Virus record (IMG/VR): IMGVR_UViG_3300017917_001616
Coordinates: 1-64,000 of that record
Source: a virus
Length of the DNA stretch: 64,000 nt
Direction: 5' to 3' (one strand)
Shown here: one piece after another, positions 18,618 through 34,165 of the stretch
How positions within the stretch are numbered: position 1 is the stretch's first letter
How the letters are laid out: every line of letters begins with the position of its first letter
The notes under the pieces: generated by a model
The model's input: the letters and a program-made list of their open reading frames with translations, nothing else
Database searches by the model: none
What the model was told of the DNA's origin: nothing
Made by a program: the position numbers and the translations under genes

Positions 18618-18625
18618 AAAATTAT

Positions 18626-19062: not shown

Positions 19063-19064
19063 AT

Positions 19065-19141
19065 TGCGGGGTAGAGAAGTGGTCATCTCGCTTGGCTCAT
19101 AACCAAGAGATCGCTGGTTCGAATCCAGCCCAACGCAACCA
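19065..19141 (+). tRNA. tRNA-Met(CAT), initiator-like
   Basis: TGCGGGG start, fMet-like D arm, loop CTCATAA; imperfect acceptor stem. Confidence 0.8.
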
Positions 19142-19244
19142 AATTTCCAGTCTTAGTTACTAGGATCTCTCAGTTAAAAGCTGTCCTAGTGTAAAGCAAT
19201 GTCCTAAATGGCTTGCTTCTAAGGTAGCTGGAAAGCCAACAGTT

Positions 19245-19335
19245 GGACACTTGGCAGAGATGGATTATTGCACCGGTCTTGAAAACCGACGACGCTGAAA
19301 GGCGTCCCAGGGTTCGAATCCCTGAGTGTCCGCCA
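19245..19335 (+). tRNA. tRNA-Ser(TGA)
   Basis: Loop CTTGAAA, long V arm, G73, CCA. Confidence 0.92.
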
Positions 19336-19341
19336 TAAATT

Positions 19342-19415
19342 GGCCCTATGGTATATGGGTATTACACTAGGCTGTCTACCTGGTGAACGGGGTTCGAGTC
19401 CCCGTAGGGTCGCCA
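19342..19415 (+). tRNA. tRNA-Asp(GTC)
   Basis: Loop CTGTCTA, G73, CCA. Confidence 0.9.
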
Positions 19416-19616
19416 AGATACTTGAGTGTTAGTAAGTGAAAGGTGCAACAGTTTAGCGGCTGTTGTAACAAGGAGATATGCAATCCTCCGAGTAACTGTA
19501 ATAACGGACCCCAAGGACGCAAGTCCATAACTGCACGGCCGAAAATTTGCAGATAATGCTGTTGATGTTGTGGCAACAGGCTCAAGTAATAAAATAAAAA
19601 AAAGATAAAAAAAGTG

Positions 19617-19689
19617 TTGACAATGACAACAACACATACTATATTAAGAACATAAGCAGCAAACGTGTTGTTTATGCGCTCTTTGAAAA
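19617..19689 (+). promoter_or_regulatory. Sigma70 promoter, hairpin and boxA-like element
   Basis: TTGACA-17-TATATT, hairpin 19652-19675, CGCTCTTTGAAAA at 19677. Confidence 0.7.
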
Positions 19690-19699
19690 TTTGGTAAAC

Positions 19700-19884
19700 A
19701 CTGTGTTTAAAACTAACACGATACTAGATACTGTGTATAATGCACCGTTGGTTAGTGACCAGGTATTAGTAGGCTGAACAGCGTTGGGACGCAACTGTCG
19801 CAAAGACAGGAGGACTGGTTCGATTCCAGCAGTAGCAATTTACTCTCGAGGTGGGTTGCTTATTGTGTTAGTTTTAAACACAGT
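19700..19884 (+). ncRNA. Stem-enclosed RNA cassette with T-arm
   Basis: 24-bp terminal stem with one G-U; internal ctgg-ttcgatt-ccag. Confidence 0.6.
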
Positions 19885-19889
19885 ATAAC

Positions 19890-20746
19890 ATGGGCGGTAT
19901 AGCGTCCGACTTAAGGGTAAGTGCAGTAATGCACCCAAAGCAAGGTTTCCTATAAACTTGCGCTGTAGCAATACAGTCCATCTATGCAAGCCTGAACTAG
20001 AGTTGACTCGGTTATCCGAAAGCAACTCCCGTCCGTAGAAAGGCGGTAGGCAGTAAGTTAGGAATGGTGTCCGAAAGGATAGTCGCAGAGCCAGTCGGTG
20101 AGCGATAAGAGGGTTGGCGCCCAAACACCGTTCAGCCAAACTAACGAATGCTGAAAGTTAACAGGTAGCTACAGAGTCTGAGCCCGCAAGCAAAGGCATG
20201 GTAGCATCTTGAGAGTGGAAGGGTTAGGCCCCGGATACTTGAAAAGACGTTGAGTAGTCCGCAAGACGAAAGACAGTTGGTGTGTTGTATTCTGTATCTA
20301 ACAAGATATGGAGCAACTGGGGCAGCACATCGAAGTAGGTTCGCAATATTGCATAACGGTAATGCAATCGTATTATCAAACGACAGACTGTGGGTTCGAT
20401 TCCCACTGTTGCACACAAAAGCGAAAGACTGTCCCGGTATACTACGAAAGGTGGTTAATGCCACACTCGAAAGAGAATGTGGTCTACAGATGCTCGCAAG
20501 GCGGACGTAGTTGTTCGGAAAGATAGCGTAACTTCTTAGCGGAAGTGAACTGCTCGCAAGGCAGGCGAAGGATAGAAGGACGAGTAGTAGTATGCGACGA
20601 GAGAAACGCCACTCTCCAAAAAAGGCACCACTGGAAGATACAGGATGACCGTAAAAGGCTCCTGTGGATAACGAGAGAACGTGGCTCGCAAGGCTAACGG
20701 TAATGCTCAAAGGCTTCCATCCTATGCTGTAATCTCAAGCTAGGCA
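19890..20746 (+). ncRNA. Large ornate ncRNA, GOLLD-like, with a nested tRNA-like element (20342-20413)
   Basis: About 860 nt, GC-richer, no credible ORF, many GNRA-capped hairpins (gcaa, gaaa), located among tRNAs; boundaries approximate. Confidence 0.6.
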
Positions 20747-20851
20747 AAACATTACGTTTTGATGATACACATATATACTAACAGAGGCTTAGTCCGGAGA
20801 GCGTTATGCCAAGTTTATGTGTATCTTCTAAGCGTAAAATAAATACTTTAC

Positions 20852-20927
20852 GGGCTCTTAGCTCAGTTGGGAGAGCGGTAGCTTTGCAAGCTTCAGGTCA
20901 GCGGTTCGATCCCGCTAGGGTCCACCA
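20852..20927 (+). tRNA. tRNA-Ala(TGC)
   Basis: G3-U70, loop TTTGCAA, CCA. Confidence 0.93.
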
Positions 20928-20934
20928 AAATAAT

Positions 20935-21009
20935 GCGGGTGTAGCTCAGGGGTAGAGCGGCTGCTTGCCAAGCACCAGGTCACGGGTTCGAATCCCGTTA
21001 CCCGCTCCA
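20935..21009 (+). tRNA. tRNA-Gly(GCC)
   Basis: Loop TTGCCAA, U73, CCA. Confidence 0.93.
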
Positions 21010-21063
21010 AGTTAGGTTTTCGGTTAAGCCATTTAAAACCGTAAATGTATGTGAGAGGACAAT

Positions 21064-21318
21064 ATGAAAACTTTAGAAGAAAAAGAACAGTTTTACACTA
21101 AATGTGGAGAACTATTGGGAATAGAACACGTTTACACTACACCGGTTCCTAGACGTAACAGATGGAATACAAGACGATTAGGTAACGGTCGGTATCCCGG
21201 GTTTGGGTTGATACACTGTTATGGTAGTAGTGTGCGAGTTATGAGTAAACACGGAACACGTATGTTTAGCTCATACGAAGCGGTATATGAATATTTGTTA
21301 AAAGTTTTGCCCTTATAG
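21064..21318 (+). CDS. Hypothetical protein; stop codon lies inside tRNA-Thr
   Basis: GAGGA SD, 84 aa. Confidence 0.65.
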   Translation: MKTLEEKEQFYTKCGELLGIEHVYTTPVPRRNRWNTRRLGNGRYPGFGLIHCYGSSVRVMSKHGTRMFSSYEAVYEYLLKVLPL

Positions 21319-21384
21319 CTCAGCTGGTAGAGCATCTGATTTGTAATCAGAGGGTCGGGAGTTCAAGTCTCTCTGGGGGCACCA
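21309..21384 (+). tRNA. tRNA-Thr(TGT)
   Basis: Loop TTTGTAA, CCA. Confidence 0.93.
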
Positions 21385-21390
21385 AAATTT

Positions 21391-21466
21391 GGCTCGGTAG
21401 CAAAAGCGTCGAATGCGTGATCTTGCAAAGATCGAGGTGGTGGTTAAAGTCCATCCTGAGCCTCCA
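21391..21466 (+). tRNA. tRNA-Cys(GCA), atypical D and T loops
   Basis: Loop TTGCAAA, U73, CCA; T-loop TTAAAGT. Confidence 0.75.
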
Positions 21467-21476
21467 AAAACTAAAT

Positions 21477-21560
21477 GGTCGGTGGCCCGGATGGTAAGGG
21501 GATGGACTGCAACTCCATAGCACTGCAAAGTAATGTGTTCGATTCACATACCGACCTCCA
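21477..21560 (+). tRNA. tRNA-Cys(GCA) with long variable arm
   Basis: Loop CTGCAAC, extra arm act-gcaa-agt, U73, CCA. Confidence 0.82.
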
Positions 21561-21579
21561 AGTTTTTATAAATATATGT

Positions 21580-21969
21580 ATGAAGATATTTGAGATCACA
21601 GCAAAACTTGTAAACAAGTATTATCCAGAGCCGGATGAGACTGAAGTTGGGTCTGATGTAAAGAATGTAAGAAATGAAGTAAATCGAGTTGTTACATTGC
21701 CAATGAATCAAATTAAGTCTAGATTCGAAGGCGACGATAAAGCAGATCCTGCGTGGACTACAGCTAGAGCAAATATCGAAAACATTAAAAAACAAATTAA
21801 AAAAGATGTCAAACAGCTACCTCCAATAGTTGTGAGAAGGCTTCCAAGAGAAAATACGTATCAAGTAATAGATGGTCACCATCGTTACTTTGCATTTCGT
21901 GAAATGAATATTAAACTTATACCAGCTATAATACTAAATGCTGGACAAGTTACTGGTGACAAATATTAA
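21580..21969 (+). CDS. ParB/Srx N-terminal (ParBc-like) domain protein
   Basis: PPIVVR...YQVIDGHHR motif; TAAATA upstream; MKIFEI start. Confidence 0.8.
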   Translation: MKIFEITAKLVNKYYPEPDETEVGSDVKNVRNEVNRVVTLPMNQIKSRFEGDDKADPAWTTARANIENIKKQIKKDVKQLPPIVVRRLPRENTYQVIDGHHRYFAFREMNIKLIPAIILNAGQVTGDKY

Positions 21970-21978
21970 AAATACAAT

Positions 21979-22055
21979 GCGGATGTAGGCCAATTGGTAG
22001 AGTCGCTGCGCTTAGAACGCAGATGTTGGGGGTTCGAGTCCCTCCATCCGCACCA
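21979..22055 (+). tRNA. tRNA-Leu(TAG), short variable loop
   Basis: Loop CTTAGAA, A73, CCA. Confidence 0.88.
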
Positions 22056-22063
22056 AAGGTTGA

Positions 22064-22138
22064 TGGGAAGTAGTTCAGTGGTAGAATAACTGACTTTGAA
22101 TCAGCAGGTCGGAGGTTCGAGCCCTCCCTTCCCAACCA
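22064..22138 (+). tRNA. tRNA-Gln(TTG)
   Basis: U1-A72, loop CTTTGAA, CCA. Confidence 0.92.
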
Positions 22139-22146
22139 AAAAATAT

Positions 22147-22223
22147 CCGAGTGTAGCTCAGTTTGGTAGAGCGCCTGGTTTGGGACCAGGATGTCGTGGG
22201 TTCAAATCCTGCTACTCGGACCA
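22147..22223 (+). tRNA. tRNA-Pro(TGG)
   Basis: Loop TTTGGGA, CCA. Confidence 0.92.
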
Positions 22224-22519
22224 ATAAATTGTAGTGTTGAGCAACGACAACAAGACTGCTACAGCGGTCTACTACATTCGGTAAGCGGGACCGTTCGTTG
22301 TAACAGCCAAACAAGACGACCGAAGTAAACTAGTTTAGACCTAGCGAAAAGGGCCAGCTGCCTGTGACGTGCATTCCGGGGTTAGAGAAGCTGGGGATAT
22401 GGTTTCGGTGTTTACCTGAACAAAATATACTGTGGAATGTCGTTTTCTGTCTAAGAATAATCTGTTACAACGAAATAGTAACTCCGGATGATAGTAACCG
22501 GTTTATATAGAGATTCAAT

Positions 22520-22594
22520 GCGGGTGTAACTCAGAGGTAGAGTGTCAGCCTTCCAAGCTGTTCGTCGAGGGTTCGATTCCCTTCGCCCGCTCCA
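22520..22594 (+). tRNA. tRNA-Gly(TCC)
   Basis: Loop CTTCCAA, U73, CCA. Confidence 0.93.
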
Positions 22595-22598
22595 AATT

Positions 22599-22673
22599 GC
22601 CGGTGTAGCTCAGTGGTAGAGCGACGGTCTCCAAAACCGTGCGTAGTGGGTTCGATTCCTACCTCCGGCGCCA
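22599..22673 (+). tRNA. tRNA-Trp(CCA)
   Basis: Loop CTCCAAA, G73, CCA. Confidence 0.93.
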
Positions 22674-22924
22674 AACTTGGGAGTTAGCCGCCCAAAACCA
22701 GTGTCAACGACTTCTCATACAACTTGACACTCTAATAAACTTTTGTATCTGAGACGAGGCCATCTGCGTAGTGATGGCAGGCGTTGGTTGTGTTGGTCTT
22801 GAAAGAAACGCAACGGGTATTGATGCATGCCTAAGGAAAGGGTTGGCCCCCAGCATCGACTATTTTATGACCTAGCGTCACTGTATTGGTCTAGTCACCC
22901 TTATACACCTAGGTCTTCTTATTT

Positions 22925-22999
22925 GCGCCCTTGGACAAGATGGATTGTCAGAGGATTCTAACCCTTAGTAGACGGGATCGTTACCCGTAGGGCGCACCA
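22925..22999 (+). tRNA. Atypical tRNA; anticodon CTA (amber suppressor) in canonical register, TCT (Arg) in shifted register
   Basis: Perfect acceptor, D and T stems; weak anticodon stem around TTCTAAC; CCA. Confidence 0.7.
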
Positions 23000-23128
23000 A
23001 ATATTTCTGGGTTATCCGAGACAATCTCCGCCACGGGCGGCTTGGCTGTTTATAAGTCTAGCAAAGCTAGTTAGATACTATAGGACATAGACGGTAACTT
23101 GGGGCGCTATAAATAAAAGGAGCAATAC

Positions 23129-23305
23129 ATGAGAATGACCAAAGAAGAAATTGAAACCGCAGTTCGAGTTTGGCCAGCTAATGTAAAGGCTCCGATAACT
23201 CGAGACGAACAAATACAACTAATTATTACAGCACGTGAACGTCACGCTGCTAACAGAGAAAAAATTCGACAACTTTTAAAGGAGAATAATAATGTCGTAG
23301 ATTGA
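23129..23305 (+). CDS. Small hypothetical protein (58 aa)
   Basis: TATAAATA and AAGGAG SD upstream. Confidence 0.55.
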   Translation: MRMTKEEIETAVRVWPANVKAPITRDEQIQLIITARERHAANREKIRQLLKENNNVVD

Positions 23306-23885
23306 ATATGCTTGTAAGGAACTAGTTTTCCATTTCAACAAAAAACACTTAGAAGATGATACTATCCCGATGTGGGTTATCAAGTTTCGTGGTGAAACAT
23401 ATTATGTTAACCATGTAGATTGCAGCGTTCCGTGGTCAACCAAAGAAACGCCAGATAACAATCACACCAAAGGCAGTATTAAAGTTAAAAACTGCTTAGT
23501 AGTAATTGATGATTCAAACACAGCAATTATTACACCATTGACTGAAGCAGATAAGAAAAAACTCGAAAGTAAGAAAAAATTTACACGTATTATTACTAGC
23601 TATGGTGCAAAGTTGAAGGCAGCAATCAACGACTTAGGACTTGAAACTGGTTATATTAAAAAAGCAGGCGGTGGCTGTAGCACGTTATGGTTCATCACCG
23701 AGTTGTATAATTACGATGAGTTTTTTCAACTTAAGTTTGCTATGACAGGCACAGACTTGCGAGTGTTAAAAGAAAACGAAGACTACTTCAAAGCGTATGG
23801 TTCATCAACAGATGACCAAGAATATATCGACGACGAAGAAGATTTGTATGATGACGAGGATTACGAATCATTATACGAAACTTAG
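23292..23885 (+). CDS. Hypothetical protein; probable true start 23292 with in-frame TAG at codon 3 (ORF track starts at 23370)
   Basis: AAGGAG SD before ATG TCG TAG ATT GAA...; frame continues open into 23370-23885. Confidence 0.6.
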
Positions 23886-23967
23886 ACTACAAACGTAGCA
23901 GTAACTAGGTTACTGCCCGTATAAAACCCCCGCTGTGATCCCGAGATAAGAACACAGAGGACCAGCA

Positions 23968-23993
23968 CCCCACGCTTTCGAGCGTGGGTTTTT
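23968..23993 (+). terminator. Rho-independent terminator
   Basis: cccacgct-ttcg-agcgtggg followed by TTTTT. Confidence 0.75.
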
Positions 23994-24068
23994 GCGGGAT
24001 TAGCTCAGTGGTAGAGCCGCTCGTTTACACCGAGAAGGTCGGGAGTTCGAACCTCTCATCCCGCACCA
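23994..24068 (+). tRNA. tRNA-Val(TAC)
   Basis: Loop TTTACAC, CCA. Confidence 0.92.
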
Positions 24069-24090
24069 ATTATTTTTATGGACGTTATAT

Positions 24091-24717
24091 ATGGTTAAAA
24101 TGACTTGTTACTCGGATGTTCCTGGATGGGGAGATTTTCCGATAGTATACCGTGATTTAGTTGCGTCACTGCCTGCTAACGCTAGTATACTTGAATTAGG
24201 TGTTGGGTTTGGACGTGGAACATGGACAATGCTCGACGCAATGACGGATACCATGTCACTTTATATAATTGATAGTTTTAATGCAGTAGACACAGTAGAT
24301 TTGTGGGAAAATTATTTCGAAACAGGTAGTCCGGTAACACTAAGTCGGGAAAATATATTAGAGTATGGAAATATGACTAAAATATATAACCACTACGAAA
24401 TCTTTTTACATAATATATGTCAACACACACGTTACTCTCAAATACAAGCAATACATGCTATATCAAGCGACGAGTATATTGCTTCGAATTTTAAGAATGA
24501 TTTTGATCTTGTATTCCTAGACGGCGAGCATTCATATGAAGCTGTAAAGCAAGAACTTGAATACTTTAAAAATTCTGGCATAATTTCTGGACATGACTAC
24601 AATATTGAAACTTGGCCGGGTGTAATACAAGCGGTAACCGAATTTCTTGATAGTAACCCCGATCGGTATTTAAAAGTATACGAAGAAAATGAAGTATTTG
24701 TGATTTGCCGTCGTTAA
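24091..24717 (+). CDS. Class I SAM-dependent methyltransferase (Methyltransf_24-like)
   Basis: ILELGVGFGR, FLDGEHSYE, ISGHDY...WPGV motifs. Confidence 0.85.
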   Translation: MVKMTCYSDVPGWGDFPIVYRDLVASLPANASILELGVGFGRGTWTMLDAMTDTMSLYIIDSFNAVDTVDLWENYFETGSPVTLSRENILEYGNMTKIYNHYEIFLHNICQHTRYSQIQAIHAISSDEYIASNFKNDFDLVFLDGEHSYEAVKQELEYFKNSGIISGHDYNIETWPGVIQAVTEFLDSNPDRYLKVYEENEVFVICRR

Positions 24718-24755
24718 ACTGAATAATAAATAGTTTTAATTACGGAGATTACAAT

Positions 24756-25619
24756 ATGGTCTATCATTTAGAAAATTCTATCTGGAATAAAAAAAATCAT
24801 CCAGAAGGACTTTCGCTGCCTATGATCGAAGATTTACCTAGGGTCAACTTATTATTAAAGCCTGCAATAGAAAGAAAGGCAAAAGACAAGATTGTTATTG
24901 ACCTTGGGTGCGGCAGCGGATTATTGGGACTATATGCTTTTGACTACGGTGCAAAATTTGTTTATTTTGTTGAACAAGACCCTTTCATGATTGATACATT
25001 ACGTAACAGTTTGCCTAAAATACTAGATCCTAACAAATTTAAAATTATTCATAAGTATGCACAAGACTTAACTTATGATGATTTTGATTGTGGCGAACCA
25101 GAGTTATGTGTTAGTGAGTTACAAGGGCCGCAACTGTATGACGAAGGTTGCTATCAATGCACAATTCCTATACGAAGCATGTATCAAAACTTAGTATTCA
25201 TACCAGAAGTGTATCGACTCGATATCATTGAATCAGATGTAGACTATAGCAAATGGCCGTGGCCTCAAAGCGAAACACGTTTGTTAGAGCATTACAAATA
25301 TATGTATTCTAAAATAGGTTGGACAAATGGGTTTATCGGATTAGACCGTCCTATCGAATTAGTAAATCCGAAAAAAATAGGTGAGCTTGTATACGACACA
25401 AGATCTGGTATTTTTAAAAACACATTTTCTACTGTTATTACTGCGCCAGAAGGCAAAATGATTAACATGTTTGGTTTTTGCCAATCTGACGAATTAGAAA
25501 ATGTTACAACTAAATTTGGTTGGTATGTTTATCCCAGACAGGAACAGATGTTATTGACAGTTCATAATCCCAATACAGCTATTGATTCTAGGATTATGTT
25601 TTCTTTAGCATTACAATGA
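24756..25619 (+). CDS. SAM-dependent methyltransferase, PRMT-like
   Basis: M..D..R, VIDLGCGSGLL, GAK.VY.VE, SE..G..L.DEG double-E-like loop. Confidence 0.7.
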   Translation: MVYHLENSIWNKKNHPEGLSLPMIEDLPRVNLLLKPAIERKAKDKIVIDLGCGSGLLGLYAFDYGAKFVYFVEQDPFMIDTLRNSLPKILDPNKFKIIHKYAQDLTYDDFDCGEPELCVSELQGPQLYDEGCYQCTIPIRSMYQNLVFIPEVYRLDIIESDVDYSKWPWPQSETRLLEHYKYMYSKIGWTNGFIGLDRPIELVNPKKIGELVYDTRSGIFKNTFSTVITAPEGKMINMFGFCQSDELENVTTKFGWYVYPRQEQMLLTVHNPNTAIDSRIMFSLALQ

Positions 25620-25625
25620 AATTAT

Positions 25626-25699
25626 GCCGGTATAGCTGAGTGGTTTAGCAGCTGATTAGTAATCAGCCGACGGGAGTTCGATTCTCTCTACCGGCACCA
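25626..25699 (+). tRNA. tRNA-Thr(AGT)
   Basis: Perfect stem gctga/tcagc around loop TTAGTAA, CCA. Confidence 0.88.
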
Positions 25700-25717: not shown

Positions 25718-26530
25718 ATGTTTGTAAAGGAATCGGCAATGGGTGTAAAATTTGTAATAGGGTTAACAGATGTAACAATACATGAATCGTTTTATCCGAC
25801 TCCGGACGTTGTTAACACATATCAAGGTCCCGCAGATCAATTTGAAAAAGTGGCATATTATGTTTTACAAAATAATAACGCTTCAATTGAGAAAGCATCG
25901 ATAGAATGGACATTGGATACAACTCTTCCTGCTGTCAATACTGTGTTAGATATCATTGATACTGTAAAAATATCGCCCTTAAATGTTACACACATATATG
26001 CTCACAAGTATACACAAGAAGTATTGCCTAGTTTGTTTGACACAGACTTTATCATTGAAATGAAAAATTTGGTCCCAGTGGATGGGTTAGTGTTCCCTGA
26101 GTATACTAGTGTTGATTATGATAATATTTCAACAAACAAACCTCCGATGTATTGCAGTTTAGAATTAGACGGCACATGTGCTACATTAACAAGTCAGGTT
26201 GAAGATGCACAAACACTTGCATACGCTATGTTTAACAATGATTTATCATATTTGGTTAACGGGCCTATGATAAAATATGTTTATCCTACGTTTAGGGTAA
26301 ATTTTAGACATAATGGAGAAACAGTGTTAAACAAATCTATGTCAGTGCAACAAACACAATGGATGCGTGATAACAAAGATTTTCTTGAATCTAAAGGATA
26401 TTTCGAGTCTGATAATAAAAACAAATTAGGATCTCTTGTGATAGGTCAACTTGTAGGTAGCTATCAAGATGCATTTGCAAAAGCACAACAGTATACCAGA
26501 ATTTGCAGAGTTGAAATAATAAGGGATTAA
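25718..26530 (+). CDS. Hypothetical protein (paralog of the next ORF)
   Basis: KFVIGLTDV...EKASIEW...RICR. Confidence 0.7.
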   Translation: MFVKESAMGVKFVIGLTDVTIHESFYPTPDVVNTYQGPADQFEKVAYYVLQNNNASIEKASIEWTLDTTLPAVNTVLDIIDTVKISPLNVTHIYAHKYTQEVLPSLFDTDFIIEMKNLVPVDGLVFPEYTSVDYDNISTNKPPMYCSLELDGTCATLTSQVEDAQTLAYAMFNNDLSYLVNGPMIKYVYPTFRVNFRHNGETVLNKSMSVQQTQWMRDNKDFLESKGYFESDNKNKLGSLVIGQLVGSYQDAFAKAQQYTRICRVEIIRD

Positions 26531-26536: not shown

Positions 26537-27298
26537 ATGCTAAAATTTGTAGTAGGCTTAACAGATGTAGTTGATTACGAAGGGTTTGTATACAACGAGT
26601 CAAACAAAGATGATCCAGGTGTATATTACAACATACGTAAAGCATCTGTAGAAATAGAAAAAGCAAAATTAGAATGGAAGATATACACAGATATTGATGC
26701 TGCTAAAAATTCCATTATGCTTTGGGAAAAAATAATAAGAATACCTCATTTGTGCATGATCGGTTCTCATTCACAAGAATACAAGTTTTATCCAGAGTTT
26801 AAAGAATATAATTTTTCTATCTCTTATGTTAACTTATTGCCAATGGGATTAGAATACGTAAAGAAGTTTACAGATGATGATTATGATAAGTGTAATGGCG
26901 AACCTGACTTTGGAGATCTATGTATACATATGTGCGAAGACATAAACGGGTTACCACAGCACGATTCTAATATTATCGGTGCCTTTAGTGCAAATGATAT
27001 AAATTTGTTACCGGATGCATCAATAAGAGGTGATGTATTACCTAGATACTTTATTAATTTTCCGTTACGTGGAAATTCAAAACCAAATCGTTGGATCAAG
27101 CAAGCAAATTTTGCAGAGTTTGTTGACAACAATAAAGAAACCATCATATCAAAAGGGTATGATATAAGTTCTAATAGAATCGAAAATTATGGTCCTATTA
27201 CAATTGGTAAACTGCTTAACGACCCAAACGAAACTTACGATTTCTTAACAAAATATCCGAGGATATGCAGAACAAGTTTTGTCCAAACAGAAGAATAA
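26537..27298 (+). CDS. Hypothetical protein (paralog of the previous ORF)
   Basis: KFVVGLTDV...EKAKLEW...RICR. Confidence 0.7.
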   Translation: MLKFVVGLTDVVDYEGFVYNESNKDDPGVYYNIRKASVEIEKAKLEWKIYTDIDAAKNSIMLWEKIIRIPHLCMIGSHSQEYKFYPEFKEYNFSISYVNLLPMGLEYVKKFTDDDYDKCNGEPDFGDLCIHMCEDINGLPQHDSNIIGAFSANDINLLPDASIRGDVLPRYFINFPLRGNSKPNRWIKQANFAEFVDNNKETIISKGYDISSNRIENYGPITIGKLLNDPNETYDFLTKYPRICRTSFVQTEE

Positions 27299-27338
27299 TT
27301 TTTTTTGTGTAATACGTCTAAATTGTCAAAGAAAACGG

Positions 27339-27367
27339 TTGACGAAGATAAATAAAAGCACTATATT
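27339..27367 (+). promoter_or_regulatory. Sigma70 promoter with a late TAAATA box embedded in its spacer
   Basis: TTGACG-aagataaataaaagcac-TATATT. Confidence 0.75.
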
Positions 27368-27395
27368 ACTAACATAAGCAAAAGGAAATCAAGAG

Positions 27396-27485
27396 ATGAC
27401 TCACAATACTAAACACATGATTAGCATTAAGCGTTTTGAACGCCACGAGTATCTCTTTGGATTCTCGGAGGGTTATAGCGGATAA
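27396..27485 (+). CDS. Putative attenuator leader peptide 2 (MTHNTKHMISIKRFERHEYLFGFSEGYSG, 29 aa)
   Basis: AAGGA SD, own promoter, terminator 26 nt after the stop, two segments complementary to the terminator. Confidence 0.78.
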   Translation: MTHNTKHMISIKRFERHEYLFGFSEGYSG

Positions 27486-27511
27486 GTGTATATACACATA
27501 AACGCAATGAC

Positions 27512-27543
27512 ACCCTCCAGTAGAGATACTAGGAGGGTTTTTT
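27512..27543 (+). terminator. Attenuator terminator 2
   Basis: accctcc-agta-gaga-tact-a-ggagggt plus T run. Confidence 0.88.
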
Positions 27544-27679
27544 ATTAGGCTAAAGTGGAAATGCGGAACGAGACTGCGAGTAACCACTATAAACAAACTC
27601 AAATGGGCGTGTTAGAAGATGAAACGACCGGTGGTAACGGCGGAGTAAAAATCTAGCAGCAAGCTAATAATTTTGTTTT

Positions 27680-27750
27680 GGCGACACGGCAAGTGCCGAC
27701 TCGGCTCTCATAAGGCTGATGATTTGGAGCGTTACCAAATGTCGCTACCA
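27680..27750 (+). tRNA. tRNA-Met(CAT)-like with reduced D arm
   Basis: Acceptor ggcgaca/tgtcgct, loop CTCATAA, atypical T-loop, CCA. Confidence 0.65.
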
Positions 27751-27752
27751 AC

Positions 27753-27878
27753 AACTCTATTTTTAGAATAGGCAGAGCAAGTAAGCAAAAGTAGTTACAT
27801 TCCCTAGTGTAGCGAAAAGAGGAGCAGGTTTAGGGACCCGGAGCATATCCCCTCGCTGCCTTTTGTAAAAGTAGAGTT
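27753..27878 (+). ncRNA. Stem-enclosed RNA cassette
   Basis: aactctatttttagaataggcag / ctgccttttgtaaaagtagagtt terminal stem. Confidence 0.55.
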
Positions 27879-27882
27879 TTAT

Positions 27883-27957
27883 TGCCTCTTAGCTCAGTGG
27901 TAGAGCAATCCCCTGATAAGGGATAGGTCACTAGTTCGAATCTAGTAGGGGCAACCA
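27883..27957 (+). tRNA. tRNA-Ile(GAT)
   Basis: Loop CTGATAA, CCA. Confidence 0.92.
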
Positions 27958-27964
27958 ATTATAT

Positions 27965-28041
27965 CTCGCATAGGACTACTCGGTGATGGTCGCTGGCCTT
28001 TCAAGTCGGAGAAACGGGTTCGAAACCCGTATGCGGGACCA
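27965..28041 (+). tRNA. tRNA-Glu(TTC)
   Basis: Loop CTTTCAA, T arm, CCA. Confidence 0.85.
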
Positions 28042-28046
28042 ATAAC

Positions 28047-28122
28047 GCTTCTAACTGTCTAATGGAAAGGCAGGCGCCCGATAAGCGTCTAGAAGGAAGT
28101 TCGATTCTTCCTAGAAGCACCA
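28047..28122 (+). tRNA. tRNA-Ile(GAT), C33 variant
   Basis: Loop CCGATAA, CCA. Confidence 0.78.
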
Positions 28123-28129
28123 AACACAT

Positions 28130-28215
28130 GTGCAGGTGGGTGAGTGGCTTAAACCAGCAGACTGTAACTCTGCCGCTGAGAAGCAACGTTGGTTCGAATC
28201 CAACCCTGCACACCA
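28130..28215 (+). tRNA. tRNA-Tyr(GTA)
   Basis: Loop CTGTAAC, V arm, CCA. Confidence 0.9.
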
Positions 28216-28257
28216 AATATAGATCAAGCCTAGTTGATCTCGAAAGTCGCTAGGCCC

Positions 28258-28322
28258 GCCCTTGCAAGAGGTTATAGAAAGGATCGAGACTTTCTATGTG
28301 GGATCGTTCCCCACCAAGGGTA
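28258..28322 (+). ncRNA. D-armless tRNA-like element (possible CGA anticodon), no CCA
   Basis: gcccttg/caagggt acceptor, 8-bp anticodon stem, gtggg-atcgttc-cccac T arm. Confidence 0.5.
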
Positions 28323-28329
28323 TCGTTAC

Positions 28330-28421
28330 GGGGGATGCAAGTAAGGCTAGGTGGTCCTGGCGGCTGGCTGTAAACCAGTCCCTGCAAAGGCAAGGCGTTC
28401 GAATCGTCCCATTCCCCACCA
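28330..28421 (+). tRNA. tRNA-Tyr(GTA), atypical (8-bp acceptor, 6-bp D stem)
   Basis: Loop CTGTAAA, V arm, CCA. Confidence 0.75.
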
Positions 28422-28426
28422 AATAT

Positions 28427-28502
28427 CCCTAGGTAGTTCAGTTGGTAGAACACATGCCTGAAGAGCATGGTGTCGGCGGTTCGATTCCGTCCCTAGGGGC
28501 CA
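28427..28502 (+). tRNA. tRNA-Phe(GAA)
   Basis: Loop CTGAAGA, CCA. Confidence 0.9.
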
Positions 28503-28505
28503 TAT

Positions 28506-28581
28506 CTGTCTGTAGCTCAACTGGAAGAGCAAGGGATTTCTACTCCCTAGGTTGCGAGTTCGACTCTTGCCAGGCAGGCCA
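28506..28581 (+). tRNA. tRNA-Arg(TCT)
   Basis: Loop TTTCTAC, A20, CCA. Confidence 0.9.
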
Positions 28582-28583
28582 AT

Positions 28584-28658
28584 CCTGATGTAGTGATAAT
28601 GGTAGCACACTGAGCTGTGGACTCAGTAGAGTTGGATCGTAACCAACCGTCAGGACCA
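28584..28658 (+). tRNA. tRNA-His(GTG), A73, no G-1
   Basis: Loop CTGTGGA; preceded by T; ends GG-A-CCA. Confidence 0.88.
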
Positions 28659-28748
28659 AAAAAATTAAAAAAAGATGAAAATAGTTGTTGACTCCAAGAT
28701 GTCTTGAATGTAGTGTGTATATGTAAGTTGAGAACAACGGAGACAACA

Positions 28749-29105
28749 ATGAAAGTTATCGTCCAGCATATCGACCAAGATCGTGATACTGGTGCTGTTT
28801 TGGGCTTTACTAATGTTGCAGAAGTTAACGTGTGGCACACCGAAGACATCGACGAAGCACTCGAATACGCTTATCGTTGGACCAACAACGTGTCAGGTTC
28901 GTGGAGCATCAAGTTGCGAGATATGCGACTGCGTGATGGCACTATGTTTGAGAATGGTGACTACAACGATGATGTAACTGTGCTTGTTCCCTTGCATAAG
29001 GGCGGAGTTGGTTTGCGTAGCACTTCGATGTTTGACCGTATGATTCTTAACGGCAAGACATACAAAGTATCGATGGTTGGGTTTACTGAAATGGAGACTG
29101 CATAA
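28749..29105 (+). CDS. Hypothetical early protein
   Basis: GGAG SD, promoter at 28688. Confidence 0.7.
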   Translation: MKVIVQHIDQDRDTGAVLGFTNVAEVNVWHTEDIDEALEYAYRWTNNVSGSWSIKLRDMRLRDGTMFENGDYNDDVTVLVPLHKGGVGLRSTSMFDRMILNGKTYKVSMVGFTEMETA

Positions 29106-29510
29106 TGTCGGACGTTACTAAGTTTTTTGCAATCGCACTTAATAGTGCGCTAGCAATTGTTGTAATCGGGATGGTGGTTAACTACGATCCCATGCGGGCA
29201 GCAATCGATCATGCTGTGCTAGTTGCAATTATGAGCGAGTAATGAAGTTAGACCCCGAAGAAAGAATACTGTTAACAAAGGAGGAAGCTGAGCGTATTGA
29301 AGACATATGTAAAAATCCTCCCGAGCCGACCGACTACGTAAGACGATATATTAACGCATATAGGAAGAAAGATGAAACGAAAACGCCAAAAGGTTCCTAA
29401 GGAAAGGAACGTGTTTGTAGCTGCCGCATTGTTTCGCAAGGCAGGCGCACACACTAAAACAAACAAAGCGAAACGAAAACGTGAAAAACAAGACTTCACA
29501 GAAAACATTA

Positions 29511-29597
29511 GGACCGGTGCCCGAGAGGCCGATGGGGACAGACTTTTAATCTGTAGCAGCAATGCCAACGAAGGTTCGAATCCTTCCCGGTTCACCA
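29511..29597 (+). tRNA. tRNA-Lys(TTT) on a Tyr-like long-V-arm body
   Basis: Loop CTTTTAA in acaga/tctgt stem, long V region, CCA. Confidence 0.85.
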
Positions 29598-29908
29598 TTA
29601 CTTTGATGATACGTAAAATATGGGTTCGATTCCCGGCACTATACCTCGCAAGGGTGAAGGGCTCCTTTAAGGTAGGATTGAACGTATCTTCTAAGTAATG
29701 ATTATTTTGACGATAACAGAATAGCAGATCCTGGGTAATTAAGTTTGCTTTAGAGTGGGATCAGGGATATGTTGCGAGCCCTGCTGTTATCTTCTAAGTA
29801 ATGACATTGTTTTGATGATATATTGATACCGAAGGGCACGACGGTTTGGTTAGTAACCCTGATGCCGGGTGAACGGTTCGAATCCAACAATATATCTTCT
29901 AAGTAATG
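29596..29908 (+). repeat. Three tandem ~104-nt stem-enclosed RNA units with shared termini TTTGA(T/C)GATA...TATCTTCTAAGTAATG
   Basis: TATCTTCTAAGTAATG ends at 29700, 29803 and 29908; a related unit lies at 20752-20837. Confidence 0.8.
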
Positions 29909-29982
29909 CGCCGGTAGCTCAGAGGCAGAGCAGGGGGCTCTTAATCCCAAGGTCGAGGTTTCGAAATCCTCCCGGCACACCA
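29908..29982 (+). tRNA. tRNA-Lys(CTT)
   Basis: Loop CTCTTAA, CCA. Confidence 0.88.
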
Positions 29983-29990
29983 AAGAATAT

Positions 29991-30068
29991 TGTCCTAGAG
30001 TCGTCCAGGTGACGGCACCTGGCTGTTAACCAGGATGGAGAGAGGTTCGAGTCCTCTTAGGACAGCCA
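29991..30068 (+). tRNA. tRNA-Asn(GTT), atypical D arm
   Basis: Loop CTGTTAA, G73, CCA. Confidence 0.85.
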
Positions 30069-30270
30069 AAATAGAATAGTGAACTCGAGAGGATAAAAAC
30101 TAAAACACTGCAAGCTGATCACTTGCTGATTTAAAAAAACAATACTAAATCAGTTTTAGTTTGACTTTCGATGTAGCTTAGTAGGGCGGCCACTAAAACT
30201 CCGGAGAGATGGCTCATTACCATCCAGTGCCCTACGACCAATTACTGTGTTATAAATAAAATTAAAAGGT

Positions 30271-30816
30271 ATGTTTATGACACTAAGACACGTTTTTCTA
30301 GACTACGATTTTTCATTATTTCTAGGTGCAAACTATCACATACACGAAGGAAGTTGCATTAAGCATCAAGTGTATGAACTCACTGATATTCACAATGAAT
30401 ACGGCGGCTTTCCTGACTCTTACAGTTTTGAAAATACACGTATTCATCAGCTCTGGTGGAATGAAGAACAAGTTGATTTTGTCGAGTTAGGAAATCAACT
30501 TGGCATGGATGTAGTGACTATAAGCACTATACTGCAGCCGCCGGGAAATGTTATTCCTATACACCGAGATACGTTTTTTCAAATAAAAAACAAATATCCA
30601 GATGACAGTAGAGTTAAGGTCAGGGCTAACATATACTTAGAAGAATGGGCAGTCGGTCACCTTATACAATACAAAGAGAACGGTGAGTGGAAAAATTCTA
30701 CACATTGGAAGGCTGGCGAAGGCTGGTTATGGGATAGCAGTATTTTGCATCTTAGTGCCAATGCAGGAATGAAAAACAAATATACTATGCAAATAAGCGG
30801 CTTCTTACGAGAATGA
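30271..30816 (+). CDS. Cupin / 2OG-Fe(II) oxygenase-like protein
   Basis: PGNVIPIHRD ... HLSANAG (HxD...H triad). Confidence 0.6.
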   Translation: MFMTLRHVFLDYDFSLFLGANYHIHEGSCIKHQVYELTDIHNEYGGFPDSYSFENTRIHQLWWNEEQVDFVELGNQLGMDVVTISTILQPPGNVIPIHRDTFFQIKNKYPDDSRVKVRANIYLEEWAVGHLIQYKENGEWKNSTHWKAGEGWLWDSSILHLSANAGMKNKYTMQISGFLRE

Positions 30817-32012
30817 TTTCTAAGGATGTTTTTGTTGTGTTAAGCAACACTGTTGAAAGTTATCATTCTTTTTTATCTGTTAAAAATGAACGTATAAACA
30901 GCATAGAAAATACTTTAGGTTTTTATCCAGGGTTTGACTATAACTTACTTGTAAATTTTAAATTTGCAAAGTTTTTACCCGTCGATTCGTTAAAGTTAGT
31001 ATTAAATTTAACTATGTTACCAAATTACGTTAATATATACCTAGATAGTGAAGTAATCGATTATATAAATCAAACAGACAACGTATATCTTTGGTTATAT
31101 TCGCCGCACGAATCTACATTACGATTTGATTTATTGTTCGACGAATTACAAAAACATAATATAAAATTTGAAAAAGTCATTATATCTAACAGTAGTGATC
31201 GCTATCATCATAAAATAGTAGATGGTGTAAAGTTTACTTGTTTATATAATTGGTGGGAACAATATTATAAGTTTCATTTACAGACCTTTACAGACGTTTC
31301 CTTTGTGACTCCGGAACAAAGATTAGCAACTATTAGCACTGCAAATAAAAAGTTCTTAAACTTAAACCGGAATTTAAAAAACTTCAGAGTTTGGTTCTAT
31401 TACAAAATGATAGAACACGGCGTCGTAGATCAAGGACATGTAAGTTACCATTTGCCTACAATAGCAAATAGTTTTGAAGATTATAATTTGTTTTTAGAAA
31501 AAGAACTATCTAAACTAAACAACAATACATTAAAAAATAAAATTTTACTAACACCTGAAATTTATAAAGTCAAAGAACTTGATGCGTTAAACCATAATAT
31601 GATAATCAATTACCAAAATAGTATTGCAGATTATTATAATGACAGTTTAGTATCTTTTACTTGCGAAAGTTTATTAGAAGAAAACTTTATAACGGAAAAA
31701 ACATTTAAGTCTATAACACATTCGCATCCGTTTATAATGATAGGCAACGATAAGATAACACAACGATTAAGATTAGCGGGCTATAAAACCTTTGAATCAA
31801 TATTTGGGTTAGATCACGTATCTACCTTAGATGCTGCAGATGAATTGTTATATGCAGTAAAGAATACAACGTTAGACAATTTAAAGAAAATTGTTAGAGA
31901 AGAATGTTTTGAAGATGTGACGTATAATTACAATCATTTTTTTAATCGAAAAGTTCATTTCAACGAAATACTCGACGATATTAAAAAAGTGGTTGACTTC
32001 AAGACATCATGA
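30813..32012 (+). CDS. Hypothetical glycosyltransferase-like protein
   Basis: FLNLNR, ES...FITEKTFK...HPF..G motif reminiscent of GT10-like enzymes. Confidence 0.5.
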   Translation: MISKDVFVVLSNTVESYHSFLSVKNERINSIENTLGFYPGFDYNLLVNFKFAKFLPVDSLKLVLNLTMLPNYVNIYLDSEVIDYINQTDNVYLWLYSPHESTLRFDLLFDELQKHNIKFEKVIISNSSDRYHHKIVDGVKFTCLYNWWEQYYKFHLQTFTDVSFVTPEQRLATISTANKKFLNLNRNLKNFRVWFYYKMIEHGVVDQGHVSYHLPTIANSFEDYNLFLEKELSKLNNNTLKNKILLTPEIYKVKELDALNHNMIINYQNSIADYYNDSLVSFTCESLLEENFITEKTFKSITHSHPFIMIGNDKITQRLRLAGYKTFESIFGLDHVSTLDAADELLYAVKNTTLDNLKKIVREECFEDVTYNYNHFFNRKVHFNEILDDIKKVVDFKTS

Positions 32013-32034
32013 AAGTATATATAAATTAACAAAT

Positions 32035-32109
32035 GCCTCTGTAGCTCAGTGGAAGAGCTCTGGTCTTCGAAACCAAGGGTCGGGAGTTCGAATCTCTCTA
32101 GGGGCACCA
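32035..32109 (+). tRNA. tRNA-Arg(TCG)
   Basis: Loop CTTCGAA, CCA. Confidence 0.9.
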
Positions 32110-32114
32110 AATAT

Positions 32115-32190
32115 ACTTCCGTAGCTCAATTGGAAGAGTGCCGCCCTACGAAGGCGATTGTTGGGGGTTCGAGTCCCTCCGGGAGTGCCA
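32115..32190 (+). tRNA. tRNA-Arg(ACG)
   Basis: Loop CTACGAA, CCA. Confidence 0.9.
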
Positions 32191-32197
32191 ATTTTAT

Positions 32198-32273
32198 AGG
32201 CCGTAACTATGGTGTAGTCGGACAATATGACATGTTGTCGTCGGAGATGGGTTCGATCCCCGCAGGCCTACCA
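32198..32273 (+). tRNA. Atypical tRNA-Val(GAC)-like
   Basis: gacaat-ATGACAT-gttgtc arm, T-loop TTCGATC, CCA; irregular acceptor and D arm. Confidence 0.55.
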
Positions 32274-32277
32274 ATTT

Positions 32278-32351
32278 GCTGCTATAGTATAAAGGTATTA
32301 TGCGTCTTTGGTAAGGACGAGACGGAGGATCGTTACCTCCTAGCAGCACCA
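32278..32351 (+). tRNA. tRNA-Thr(GGT)
   Basis: Loop TTGGTAA, CCA; T-loop ATCGTTA. Confidence 0.87.
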
Positions 32352-32371
32352 GAAAAAAGATAAAAAAGATG

Positions 32372-32433
32372 TTGACATTTATAACGTCTTACTTTAAATG
32401 TAACATGTAGACGATGAAGATGCTCTTTGACAA
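32372..32433 (+). promoter_or_regulatory. Promoter and boxA-like element ahead of an ncRNA block
   Basis: A-tract, TTGACA, TGCTCTTTGACAA at 32421. Confidence 0.65.
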
Positions 32434-33101
32434 ATTAAACAAATGACTTGGTTGTGTGCAGAACACGTAAACCCAAGTTGCGTAAATAACAGAAGCTGGT
32501 GACTATAGCATATTGTTAATGCGCTACATTGAAGGAAAGATGGCGTGGCGACCATCCAGAGCAAAGGCTCTGCAAGCACAAATCAGCTAACATGTGCGTC
32601 AGTTGTAGAGAAACTTGTCGATTCAAGTCAATGGTCGCTTCTGTTTTCACATGCACATGCGGTAGGCGCCGCTTCGAAAAGGTATGAAAGACCTAACGCC
32701 GAAAGGATAGCGAAAGACACTCTGCAGGGTGGCTCGAGTAACTAACATGTGCAGCTGAAAGCAGAAATACCTGGGCGATGACTCGAGTAAAGCAATCTTT
32801 ACCAGAGGTTGTTTGAAAGACGGCGTCAGGCTCGATACTCTAATTGTAGGGGTGCATAACGTCTACTACTACGGGCATCGGGCGGCAAGATAAGGTGCTG
32901 GTAACACTGGACTTGCTGGTGGGTTCAACTTCCCATGCCTTGGTCAAAATAATAGATTGGCCTGAGTTTGATGTTTCTCGAGATAAATCATTCCAGGACG
33001 ACGTCGGCCTGTGTTCCCACCGTGCTTGAGCCGACGATAAAAAAGCAGAGTGAAAATGCTTGAGAGACTGTTCAGTTAACGGTGGGCCGTAATTTAGTTA
33101 C

Positions 33102-33207
33102 GCTGGGTCTAGCATGGTGCTGTCGAAGAGGTTGATCTCTCCTAGACGAAGTAGAGAAATGAAACGCTCATGTGCTTCATCCCGTTCGAATCGGACGCCC
33201 GGCGCCA
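33102..33207 (+). ncRNA. CCA-ended tRNA-like RNA with a Y-RNA-like GUCGAAG/CUAGAC helix
   Basis: gctgggt/gcccggc-G-CCA acceptor, ccg-ttcgaat-cgg T arm. Confidence 0.55.
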
Positions 33208-33409
33208 ATTAACACCCATGTTCGTCTTGCTTAGTTTAGCATGTATGACTTGGGCACCAAATATTCACTATACAGGGGGTCGACATTCTGTGTAGAGAGA
33301 ACACTGCCTAGCCCGTGGGACCTCGGGGTAGCATTAAGGCGAAATACCAGTTCGTGCAGGGGTAAAAGTCCTAACGGGGGGTCCCAGGAAATTTTTAAGG
33401 TAATAGAAG

Positions 33410-33931
33410 ATGAAAGAAGCACGTAAATACCTAGTATTTTTGGATGTTGATGGCGTGTTTACTTCGTCACGTGTTCATTATGGTCACAATGCTAGCTACG
33501 ATATGTGGCACAGGTTTGATCCAGTTGCAGTAGACTTTATGAATAAGATTCATGATCGGTATCCAGTTGAGTTTGTTCTAATGTCAACTTGGAAAAACTA
33601 TATCGATGTAAAAAGTCATATGATCCAGCATTGGGTTCGTGCTGCATTTGGTAATAGCGGTTTCAGGGGGCAACTTGCAACTCCGTGGAAAACAGATCCT
33701 GACGAACTTTGGATCAACAGAAAAAACTTTGACCGAGGCGACGAAGTAAAAGAGTATTTAGATGTATACGGACAGGATGTCAACGATTTCATCTTATTTG
33801 ACGACAATGCTTATAACTTCGATAAAGCACTAGGAGTTAAGCGGCTAGTAAGAACAGATCATGAAAATGGACTGTTATACAAGCATATGCTACATGCCCA
33901 GAGTATCATGGGACAATGGCATGAACGATAG
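33410..33931 (+). CDS. HAD-family phosphatase (RNA-repair-associated type)
   Basis: FLDVDGV, MSTW, RG.E, ILFDD motifs. Confidence 0.8.
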   Translation: MKEARKYLVFLDVDGVFTSSRVHYGHNASYDMWHRFDPVAVDFMNKIHDRYPVEFVLMSTWKNYIDVKSHMIQHWVRAAFGNSGFRGQLATPWKTDPDELWINRKNFDRGDEVKEYLDVYGQDVNDFILFDDNAYNFDKALGVKRLVRTDHENGLLYKHMLHAQSIMGQWHER

Positions 33932-33995
33932 GTAGCTGCAACTACCTTGGCTAGGAGACTATCTTTAACGAACTTTGCAGAGTTGTTGATAGGTA

Positions 33996-34067
33996 GACTG
34001 TTTCGTCTAACGGAGAGGACGCTGCCTAGAGGTGGCAGAGATATAGGTTCGAATCCTGTAGCAGTTT
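33996..34067 (+). pseudogene. tRNA pseudogene / tRNA-like element (Glu/Asp-type D arm, no U33, no CCA)
   Basis: Cloverleaf with loop TAGAGGT. Confidence 0.55.
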
Positions 34068-34086
34068 TGCTCTTAGCCAGAAATTA

Positions 34087-34165
34087 GTCCTTGTAACGGA
34101 AATTGGTAAACCTCTTCCGTCGAGAGCGGCAGGATTTGTGGGTTCGAGTCCCACCAAGGACACCA
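34087..34165 (+). tRNA. tRNA-Leu(GAG), short variable region
   Basis: Loop TCGAGAG, A73, CCA. Confidence 0.75.

Follow-up and report, generated by a model that had tools for sequence, protein, structure and literature searches.

We propose that the + strand unit at 27339-27543 is a leader-peptide (ribosome-mediated) transcription attenuator, which gates a block of phage tRNA genes and senses the supply of the tRNAs that it gates. From the sequence and the predicted folds, we put the probability of this reading at roughly 70%. The parts of the unit, their conservation, the match of its codons to the downstream tRNAs and the geometry of its folds are what the analysis shows. The window, i.e., the whole 64,000-nt stretch that was analyzed, comprises the initial 64 kb of an IMG/VR contig of 74,982 bp, which is estimated to represent ~19% of the phage genome and carries genes for a T4-type large terminase and a ribonucleotide reductase. 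All 41 tRNA genes in the window were located on the + strand. Block 1, the upstream group, occupied 18542-25699, and block 2 occupied 27883-34165, with small ORFs interspersed among tRNA genes for Ile, Glu, Ile, Tyr, Phe, Arg, His, Lys, Lys, Asn, Arg, Arg, Thr, Leu and Leu; the attenuator site falls between the two groups. Two methyltransferase-like ORFs (Methyltransf_24 and PrmA/MTS-like) were present between the tRNA blocks in the region 24091-25619, and two mutually paralogous ORFs with no assigned function were found between the blocks at 25718-26530 and 26537-27298.

The promoter-leader-terminator unit is small (~230 nt) and self-contained, and all of its elements are on the + strand. An AAGGA Shine-Dalgarno-like site (27382-27386) lies 9 nt 5' of the ATG of a 29-codon leader ORF (27396-27485; stop codon 27483-27485), whose predicted peptide is MTHNTKHMISIKRFERHEYLFGFSEGYSG. 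A hairpin within the ORF, P1 (GCGUU-UUG-AACGC, 27431-27443), appeared in the MFE folds of all members of the family and is a possible pause hairpin. Segment 1 (27448-27456) and segment 2 (GGAGGGU, 27467-27473) are the 5' strands of an outer and an inner antiterminator helix, respectively, and the start-codon region (27384-27400) is an alternative partner of segment 1. The stop codon is in the 5' strand of a further hairpin, P3 (27472-27511), with a predicted energy of -11.4 kcal/mol alone and -20.7 kcal/mol when extended by the inner helix (2:3). An intrinsic terminator at 27512-27543 (-16.2 kcal/mol folded alone) comprises a 7-bp stem, a 4-bp apical stem with a GNRA loop, a bulged A and U6; i.e., ACCCTCC at 27512-27518, AGTA-GAGA-TACT at 27519-27530, the bulged A at 27531, GGAGGGT at 27532-27538 and T6 at 27538-27543. 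The hairpin at 27512-27538 was missed by a simple terminator scan because its stem is two-tiered and bulged.

The initial annotation had described AGTATCTCT at 27448-27456 as the exact reverse complement of AGAGATACT at 27522-27530, and GGAGGGT at 27467-27473 as complementary to ACCCTCC at 27512-27518. Both pairings were borne out when checked pair by pair, and all positions that it gave were correct on direct reading. The inner and outer helices nest with an internal loop of 10 x 3 nt. The three-strand arrangement GGAGG..CCTCC..GGAGG occurred once in the 64 kb and in none of 100 shuffles. In addition, the outer duplex, evaluated as the 30 nt 5' of GGAGG against the terminator apex, reached -12.2 kcal/mol compared with -5.4 kcal/mol for shuffles (z -3.5), and 0.6% of the shuffles equalled it.

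Relatives were collected by homology to the protein encoded upstream (26537-27298) and by pattern scans of IMG/VR. The upstream protein had 11 metagenomic homologues with identities down to 50%. As a single query in IMG/VR, the same protein gave no match, and the exact terminator pattern with A at 27512 gave none either. Among GenBank phages, blastn of 27000-28000 returned matches to tRNA genes only, and Rfam gave no match in 27300-27880 at E values up to 1, T-box included. The 29-codon ORF, the strong terminator and the competing GGAGGGU:ACCCUCC pairing recurred in 12 diverged phage contigs. We assigned to class A the loci with a promoter, an ORF of ~30 codons and a terminator, namely the window, L002, L003, L005, L006, L007 (the same as L008), L009, L012, L016 (the same as L018), L019, L021, L022, L025 and L027. 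L026 was rejected as a member of the family, since it looks unrelated.

The leader frame was open in every class A unit, including eight distinct relatives, and the other two frames carried 0-5 stops each. Indels preserved the frame; in L005 and L006, +4 nt 5' of GGAGG was offset by +2 nt 3' of it. In class A members, the stop codon was located 11 or 13 nt 3' of GGAGG and 52-56 nt 5' of the U tract, and purine-rich sites were present 8-13 nt 5' of the ATG in relatives. GGAGG was kept across all relatives in two reading frames, as Ser-Glu-Gly (SEG) or Thr-Gly-Gly (TGG), and is therefore constrained as RNA. P3 was found in every relative, with an unrelated sequence each time. P1 covaried, with GCGUU:AACGC in the window, L003 and L005 and GCAUU:AAUGC in L006, L008, L012, L018 and L019. 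The terminator loop was GAGA, GCGA or GCAA in most relatives, and L012 and L018 had different apical loops. Selection at the peptide level was weak, as pN/pS was mostly 0.6-0.9 and variability was equal at the three codon positions, which fits a frame that matters for being read and not for its product. On the basis of the same two measures, a conserved functional or arrest peptide was rejected.

The region was nearly identical in L002 and L003, where the upstream protein was 53-57% identical to that of the window, with synonymous differences even in the invariant C terminus, and 27300-27612 was 98-100% identical at the nucleotide level. The few substitutions affected loops of hairpins, a single G-U-compatible site and the GNRA loop. 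Mobile promoter/stem-loop cassettes are found in T4-type phages, and the near-identity with L002 and L003 fits a recent exchange of such a cassette; however, the diverged members represent an old family, and this explanation was rejected.

The promoter region was conserved together with the leader. A sigma70-type promoter on the + strand (27339-27367; scan 10/12) consists of TTGACG at 27339-27344 and TATATT at 27362-27367, separated by 17 nt, and a GATAAATAA box that resembles a T4 late promoter lies in this spacer (27347-27355, + strand). In T4-type late promoters, a TATAAATA-like box replaces the -10 and -35 elements and is read by a gp55-type factor. The initial annotation had reported a sigma70 promoter with a late box inside its 17-bp spacer; the sequence is as described, and both elements are conserved upstream in relatives. 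TTGACN-17-TAnnnN was kept in all diverged relatives that were read except L003, which has a 5-nt insertion. The GATAAATAA box was present in all class A units at varying positions, either inside the spacer or ~28 nt 5' of the -35 box (L012 and L019). In the contig, ATAAATAA occurred 11 times on the + strand and once on the - strand, and TATAAATA occurred 10 times on the + strand and not at all on the - strand; these two lists overlap, and most of the copies were located 19-48 nt 5' of ORF starts. The conserved sigma70-type promoter and the embedded late-type box, as sequence elements, support a putative dual early/late arrangement.

A conserved 24-nt motif lies just 5' of the -35 box (27309-27332, + strand) and has an exact inverted copy at 18187-18210, which reads TTGACA-17-TAAGCT on the + strand. 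The motif was kept upstream of the promoter of this attenuator type (type 2) in L002, L003, L005 and L009, and it adjoins both attenuator types in relatives. Downstream, the promoter scan found no other promoter-like site on the + strand in 27367-29591, a span that covers the first eight called tRNAs, in agreement with the earlier remark that no other obvious promoter precedes the first tRNAs. No (G/T)ATAAATA box was found in 27348-30251.

The two helices had been proposed to form a nested 16-bp antiterminator that excludes the terminator. Both helices are present in the window and the inner one is universal in the family, but the outer helix was missing or weak in L018, L019, L027 and L003. 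The outer helix was above chance, with compensatory changes, in the window, L006, L008, L012 and the type-1 leader of L019. In L006, it reads AGUAUCGCU:AGCGAUACU, which is compensatory relative to the window; in L012, the apical terminator stem was changed to AAGC/GCUU and the leader to GAGCGU. The outer helix was not above chance in L003, L018 (apical stem ACC/GGU with an unchanged leader), the type-2 unit of L019, L027, L023 and L024, and the change of the loop from GAGA to GCGA in L003 breaks one outer-helix pair. Therefore, the 16-bp nested antiterminator fits this lineage and not the family. Judging from these comparisons, the inner helix is the core of the putative switch and the outer helix is its lineage-specific reinforcement.

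A formal count on a MAFFT alignment gave four pairs changed on both sides, which was only weakly above shuffles (reached by 29 of 500). There is little variation in the key strands, and the alignment was wrong for P1, L005/L006 and L018. The covariation argument rests on paralogues with different stems rather than on this count.

We folded the RNA both as a finished transcript and as a nascent one. The finished RNA (27374-27548) folded at -46.8 kcal/mol with the terminator formed (z -4.8), compared with -45.4 kcal/mol when the inner helix was forced and -41.3 kcal/mol when both helices were forced. In full-length equilibrium folds, the terminator had a probability of at least 0.9 in six of eight members, and it was formed in all full-length MFE folds. 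The nascent RNA was defined as the RNA cut just 5' of the 3' strand of the terminator, and a ribosome was represented by a mask from -15 to +11 relative to the A site. In the nascent RNA of the window, the inner helix extended P3 with a probability of 0.99. That is, the suggestion that the antiterminator is competitive in folding held for nascent RNA, but not for finished RNA, where the terminator is more stable. As the terminator is favoured at equilibrium on full-length RNA, the predicted switch depends on the kinetics of nascent RNA.

The position of the modelled ribosome determined the fold of the nascent RNA. Across the eight members, the 2:3 helix had a probability of 0.8-1.0, which fell to ~0 with the A site in the last ~8 codons. 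In a footprint scan of the window, this probability was >0.69 for any codon up to the 20th, 0.78 at the 21st, and ~0 at the last eight codons and the stop; seven diverged relatives showed the same behaviour. The fold predictions thus agree with the initial annotation on two points: a ribosome at the stop (27485) would cover the inner segment and permit termination, as the mask there abolishes 2:3, and a ribosome stalled earlier would leave the pairing free, as 2:3 is kept with footprints up to codon 20. When the ribosome occupied codons 2-8, the competing pairing of segment 1 with the start-codon region was melted, which allowed the outer helix to appear. We found no clear or conserved anti-antiterminator in the folds of the family. 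The candidate elements were a weak local hairpin (27443-27471) and the pairing of segment 1 with the start-codon region; ribosome-free nascent folds still formed 2:3. Therefore, the predicted default of an untranslated leader is read-through.

Next to the geometry of the RNA, the codon content of the leader links it to the tRNAs downstream. We compared codons 2-22 of the leader with the tRNA blocks, using a background of 0.46 from the phage's own long ORFs; the blocks were defined after the data had been seen, and an uncalled tRNA-like element with a CAU anticodon at 27684 was counted. In leader 2 (27396), 19 of the 21 codons were read by block 2 tRNAs (background 0.46, empirical p 7e-4), and two of the 21 had their tRNAs in block 1 alone (p 0.005 for a count this low). 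The 28-residue peptide contains all 11 of the 11 amino-acid identities of block 2, namely His, Asn, Thr, Lys, Met, Ile, Arg, Phe, Glu, Tyr and Leu (joint p 1e-3). The leader codons without a block tRNA were AGC, GGA, TCG and GGT. The match was frame-specific, with 14/22 codons in frame compared with 1 and 5 in the other frames of the window, and it exceeded nucleotide shuffles in seven of the nine loci tested, with p values between 1e-4 and 6e-3. It was weaker (p ~0.1) in L005 and in L009, whose downstream sequence is incomplete. AT-rich composition was rejected as the source of the match, given the results for the shuffles and for the two alternative frames.

A search for similar small ORFs revealed a paralogous attenuator (type 1) at 17784-17999 on the + strand, associated with block 1. 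It has two GATAAATAA boxes (17784 and 17819), a leader ORF of 29 codons (17853-17942), GGGCC as segment 2 (17927-17931), and a terminator composed of GGCCCC (17970-17975) and GGGGC (17989-17993) followed by T6. The GGGCC is 8 nt 5' of the stop and matches the GCCCC/GGGGC terminator stem of this unit, and the U tract follows 51 nt after the stop by the count of the search script, the same spacing as in leader 2. In the type-1 paralogues, segment 2 thus changes together with the terminator stem (GGGCC with GCCCC/GGGGC) at the same location. As promoter elements, type-1 units have late-type boxes alone, and two or three sigma70-like promoters follow 3' of the terminator. In the window, three of these promoters (~18039, 18129 and 18192) precede tRNA-Asn (18542), and part of block 1 expression therefore bypasses the type-1 attenuator.

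The content of block 1 is reproduced in the peptide of leader 1, which is made up of Thr, Cys, Gly, Ala, Gln, Asn, Trp, Ser, Leu, Pro, Val and Asp. The codons of this leader were read by block 1 in 17 of 21 cases and only by block 2 in one of 21, and it covers 13 of the 14 block 1 identities (joint p 8e-5). Both leader types occur together in the window, in L005, in L024 with L008 (one 330-kb contig), in L023 with L006, and in L019. In the pool of these five lineages, the block-exclusive codons of leader 1 were 80/105 for block 1 and 3/105 for block 2, and those of leader 2 were 9/105 for block 1 and 59/105 for block 2; as the loci are related, neither the pooled counts nor the per-locus codon statistics are independent. 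This reciprocal pattern of two paralogous leaders is still difficult to account for in any other way. In addition, the core Cys codon of type-2 leaders was present where tRNA-Cys heads block 2 (L006, L008, L012, L018 and L019-L022) and absent where it does not (the window, L002, L003 and L009). In the window, the Cys codon was found, like the Cys tRNAs, on the block 1 side.

The interval between the terminator and the tRNAs holds a conserved structured RNA, DE (27551-27672, + strand), which is the first product of read-through. It was located at the head of a Cys/Met/Glu/Tyr/Phe/Lys/Ile/His/Arg tRNA block in 16 IMG/VR contigs; the DE loci were the window, L003, L005, L006, L008, L009 and L011-L022. 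Its helix H1 showed compensatory changes, and DE had no match in Rfam. Two exact-pattern matches in bacterial genomes were rejected as chance hits in GC-rich coding DNA. In five class B phages, DE directly follows its own promoter without a leader ORF. Many loci contain a long-range stem module (UUUUCACAUGCAC ... GUGCAGUUGAAAA) with T-loop-like inserts between DE and the first tRNA. The tRNA-like element at 27684-27755 (+ strand) was read by eye; it has a 7-bp acceptor stem, a CAU anticodon, an encoded CCA and an aberrant T loop, and neither ARAGORN nor Rfam called it. L003, L005 and L009 have a true tRNA-Met(CAU) at the corresponding position.

We infer that the leader ORF is translated, that its translation is coupled to transcription, and that regulation runs in the following direction. 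Early transcripts would start at the sigma70-type promoter and late ones at the T4-late-type box embedded in it, and both would carry the 29-codon leader ORF. As the polymerase advances, GGAGGGU (27467-27473) would pair with ACCCUCC (27512-27518) across P3, and in this lineage AGUAUCUCU would additionally pair with AGAGAUACU. The antiterminator pairing would occupy the 5' strand of the terminator, leading to read-through into the DE RNA and the tRNA genes. A ribosome that keeps pace to the last codons or the stop (27483-27485) would cover GGAGGGU and the 5' half of P3 with its footprint; with GGAGGGU covered, the terminator (27512-27543) would form and transcription would end. A shortage of any block 2 tRNA would delay the ribosome and increase read-through, i.e., a block-specific negative feedback on tRNA supply. 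As the leader is written in codons of the downstream tRNAs, more of these tRNAs are probably made when ribosomes read those codons slowly.

Three other accounts of the same sequence were weighed against this attenuator. We considered it unlikely that the unit is a small phage gene of the ordinary kind, or a small RNA with a dual function, in which the peptide or the ~170-nt RNA would be the product, the terminator would be plain, the complementarity would have no switching role, and the tRNAs would be expressed by leak-through or from unrecognised promoters. Such a gene would account for the complete promoter-ORF-terminator cassette and for the dominance of the terminator in equilibrium folds; the near nucleotide identity in L002/L003 would fit a functional RNA, and the DE and tRNAs of class B phages have their own promoter and no leader. 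However, constraint at the amino-acid level is weak, and in five lineages the composition of the leader mirrors the downstream tRNA set and that of its paralogue the other set. The fixed distances from the stop to GGAGG and to the U tract, the change of segment 2 together with the terminator stem, and the lack of promoter-like sites between the terminator and the tRNAs also argue against it.

An RNA switch that works without translation, using the same terminator/antiterminator pair with an incidental ORF and responding to a protein, a small molecule or, as in a T-box, an uncharged tRNA, seems even less probable. The T-box is a known tRNA-sensing leader, the ORF contains much conserved structure (P1, P3 and the pairing of segment 1 with the start-codon region), and conservation is higher for nucleotides than for amino acids. 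Nevertheless, no Rfam family, T-box included, matched at E values up to 1, the ORF with its ATG, purine-rich site and stop position was kept through frame-compensating indels, and the codon match is specific to one frame (14/22 compared with 1 and 5 in the window). The leader may instead be translated as proposed but act on another output, by exposing or hiding a Rho or RNase site, by affecting the stability or processing of the DE-tRNA precursor, or with reversed polarity, so that efficient translation leads to read-through. The geometry of the footprint is the only source for the direction of regulation, DE as a conserved RNA could be the real effector, and the predicted pairing of segment 1 with the start-codon region can block access to the ribosome-binding site. 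Against such an output, a U-tract terminator and an exact copy of its 3' strand within the ORF are what a standard choice between terminator and antiterminator needs, and the spacing of 11 or 13 nt puts the terminating ribosome on segment 2 and not on the terminator; we regard it as improbable, to about the same degree as the small gene.

The preferred reading, a ribosome-mediated attenuator, has counterparts in enterobacteria (trpL, hisL, pheL and leuL, and the multivalent thrL and ilvL/ivbL). These share with the phage unit a short translated leader rich in the sensed codons, an intrinsic terminator, an antiterminator that uses the 5' strand of the terminator, and a stop codon placed such that the terminating ribosome masks the antiterminator. 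By sequence and folding, the phage unit contains a ribosome-binding site with a short ORF, an intrinsic terminator placed between this ORF and the tRNA genes, an antiterminator exclusive with it, codon enrichment and the placement of the stop. In the trp leader, the terminator is the more stable structure and the outcome is decided kinetically; folding predicts the same here. However, the phage device would gate tRNA genes and a structured RNA, whereas the enterobacterial attenuators control biosynthetic enzymes, and its leader draws on 11-13 amino acids, each of them one to three times, whereas theirs have runs of one or two codons. It also lacks a clear 1:2 anti-antiterminator, with read-through as the predicted untranslated default, is phage-encoded behind early-type and late-type promoter elements, and occurs as two paralogues, between which the tRNA set is divided.

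T-box riboswitches similarly respond to the status of tRNA through alternative terminator and antiterminator structures in a 5' leader. However, their Stem I and T-box bulge bind uncharged tRNA directly, translation is not required, and the genes under control are those for aminoacyl-tRNA synthetases and amino acids, whereas the phage unit has a conserved ORF and no T-box match. In pyrBI and pyrE, the outcome is set by how closely the leader ribosome trails RNA polymerase, and a delay anywhere can matter. The phage unit would share this dependence on ribosome-polymerase coupling. In pyrBI/pyrE-type control, a closely trailing ribosome keeps the terminator hairpin from forming, and UTP-dependent pausing of the polymerase provides the signal, whereas in the phage unit a timely ribosome is predicted to favour termination and the signal would be decoding speed.

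Why phages carry tRNAs and how these are controlled is an old open question, and a full-text literature search found no description of such control of phage tRNA genes. A leader that spells out in its codons the tRNAs encoded 3' of it would sense decoding capacity by direct feedback, and it would be a clean natural example of attenuation governing RNA genes instead of enzymes. Two recent papers link phage tRNAs to escape from tRNA-cleaving defences (PMC10264068, PMC11555353). We tentatively suggest, at somewhat short of even odds, that the two leaders provide a two-channel surveillance of decoding capacity, in which the "checklist" leader of each block polls every tRNA identity in that block. 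A host anticodon nuclease or phage-induced tRNA decay that depletes any one of these tRNAs would switch on the matching replacement block, and the pair would thus be a transcriptional counter-defence sensor made of RNA and the ribosome only.

Other structured RNAs were noted in and around the tRNA blocks. In 13000-36000, only tRNA and GOLLD reached the Rfam gathering score. The GOLLD RNA (RF02032, 195 bits, full length) is located at 20277-20741 within block 1, and an ARAGORN tRNA-like call with an odd anticodon lies inside it at 20342-20414. The spacer between tRNA-Tyr and tRNA-Phe (28216-28426) is also structured and contains a tRNA-like element with a long variable arm and a GUA anticodon at 28332-28415. 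This element gave a weak Rfam match to tRNA-Sec (27.9 bits), and comparable weak matches were obtained in L011, L015, L018 and L020.
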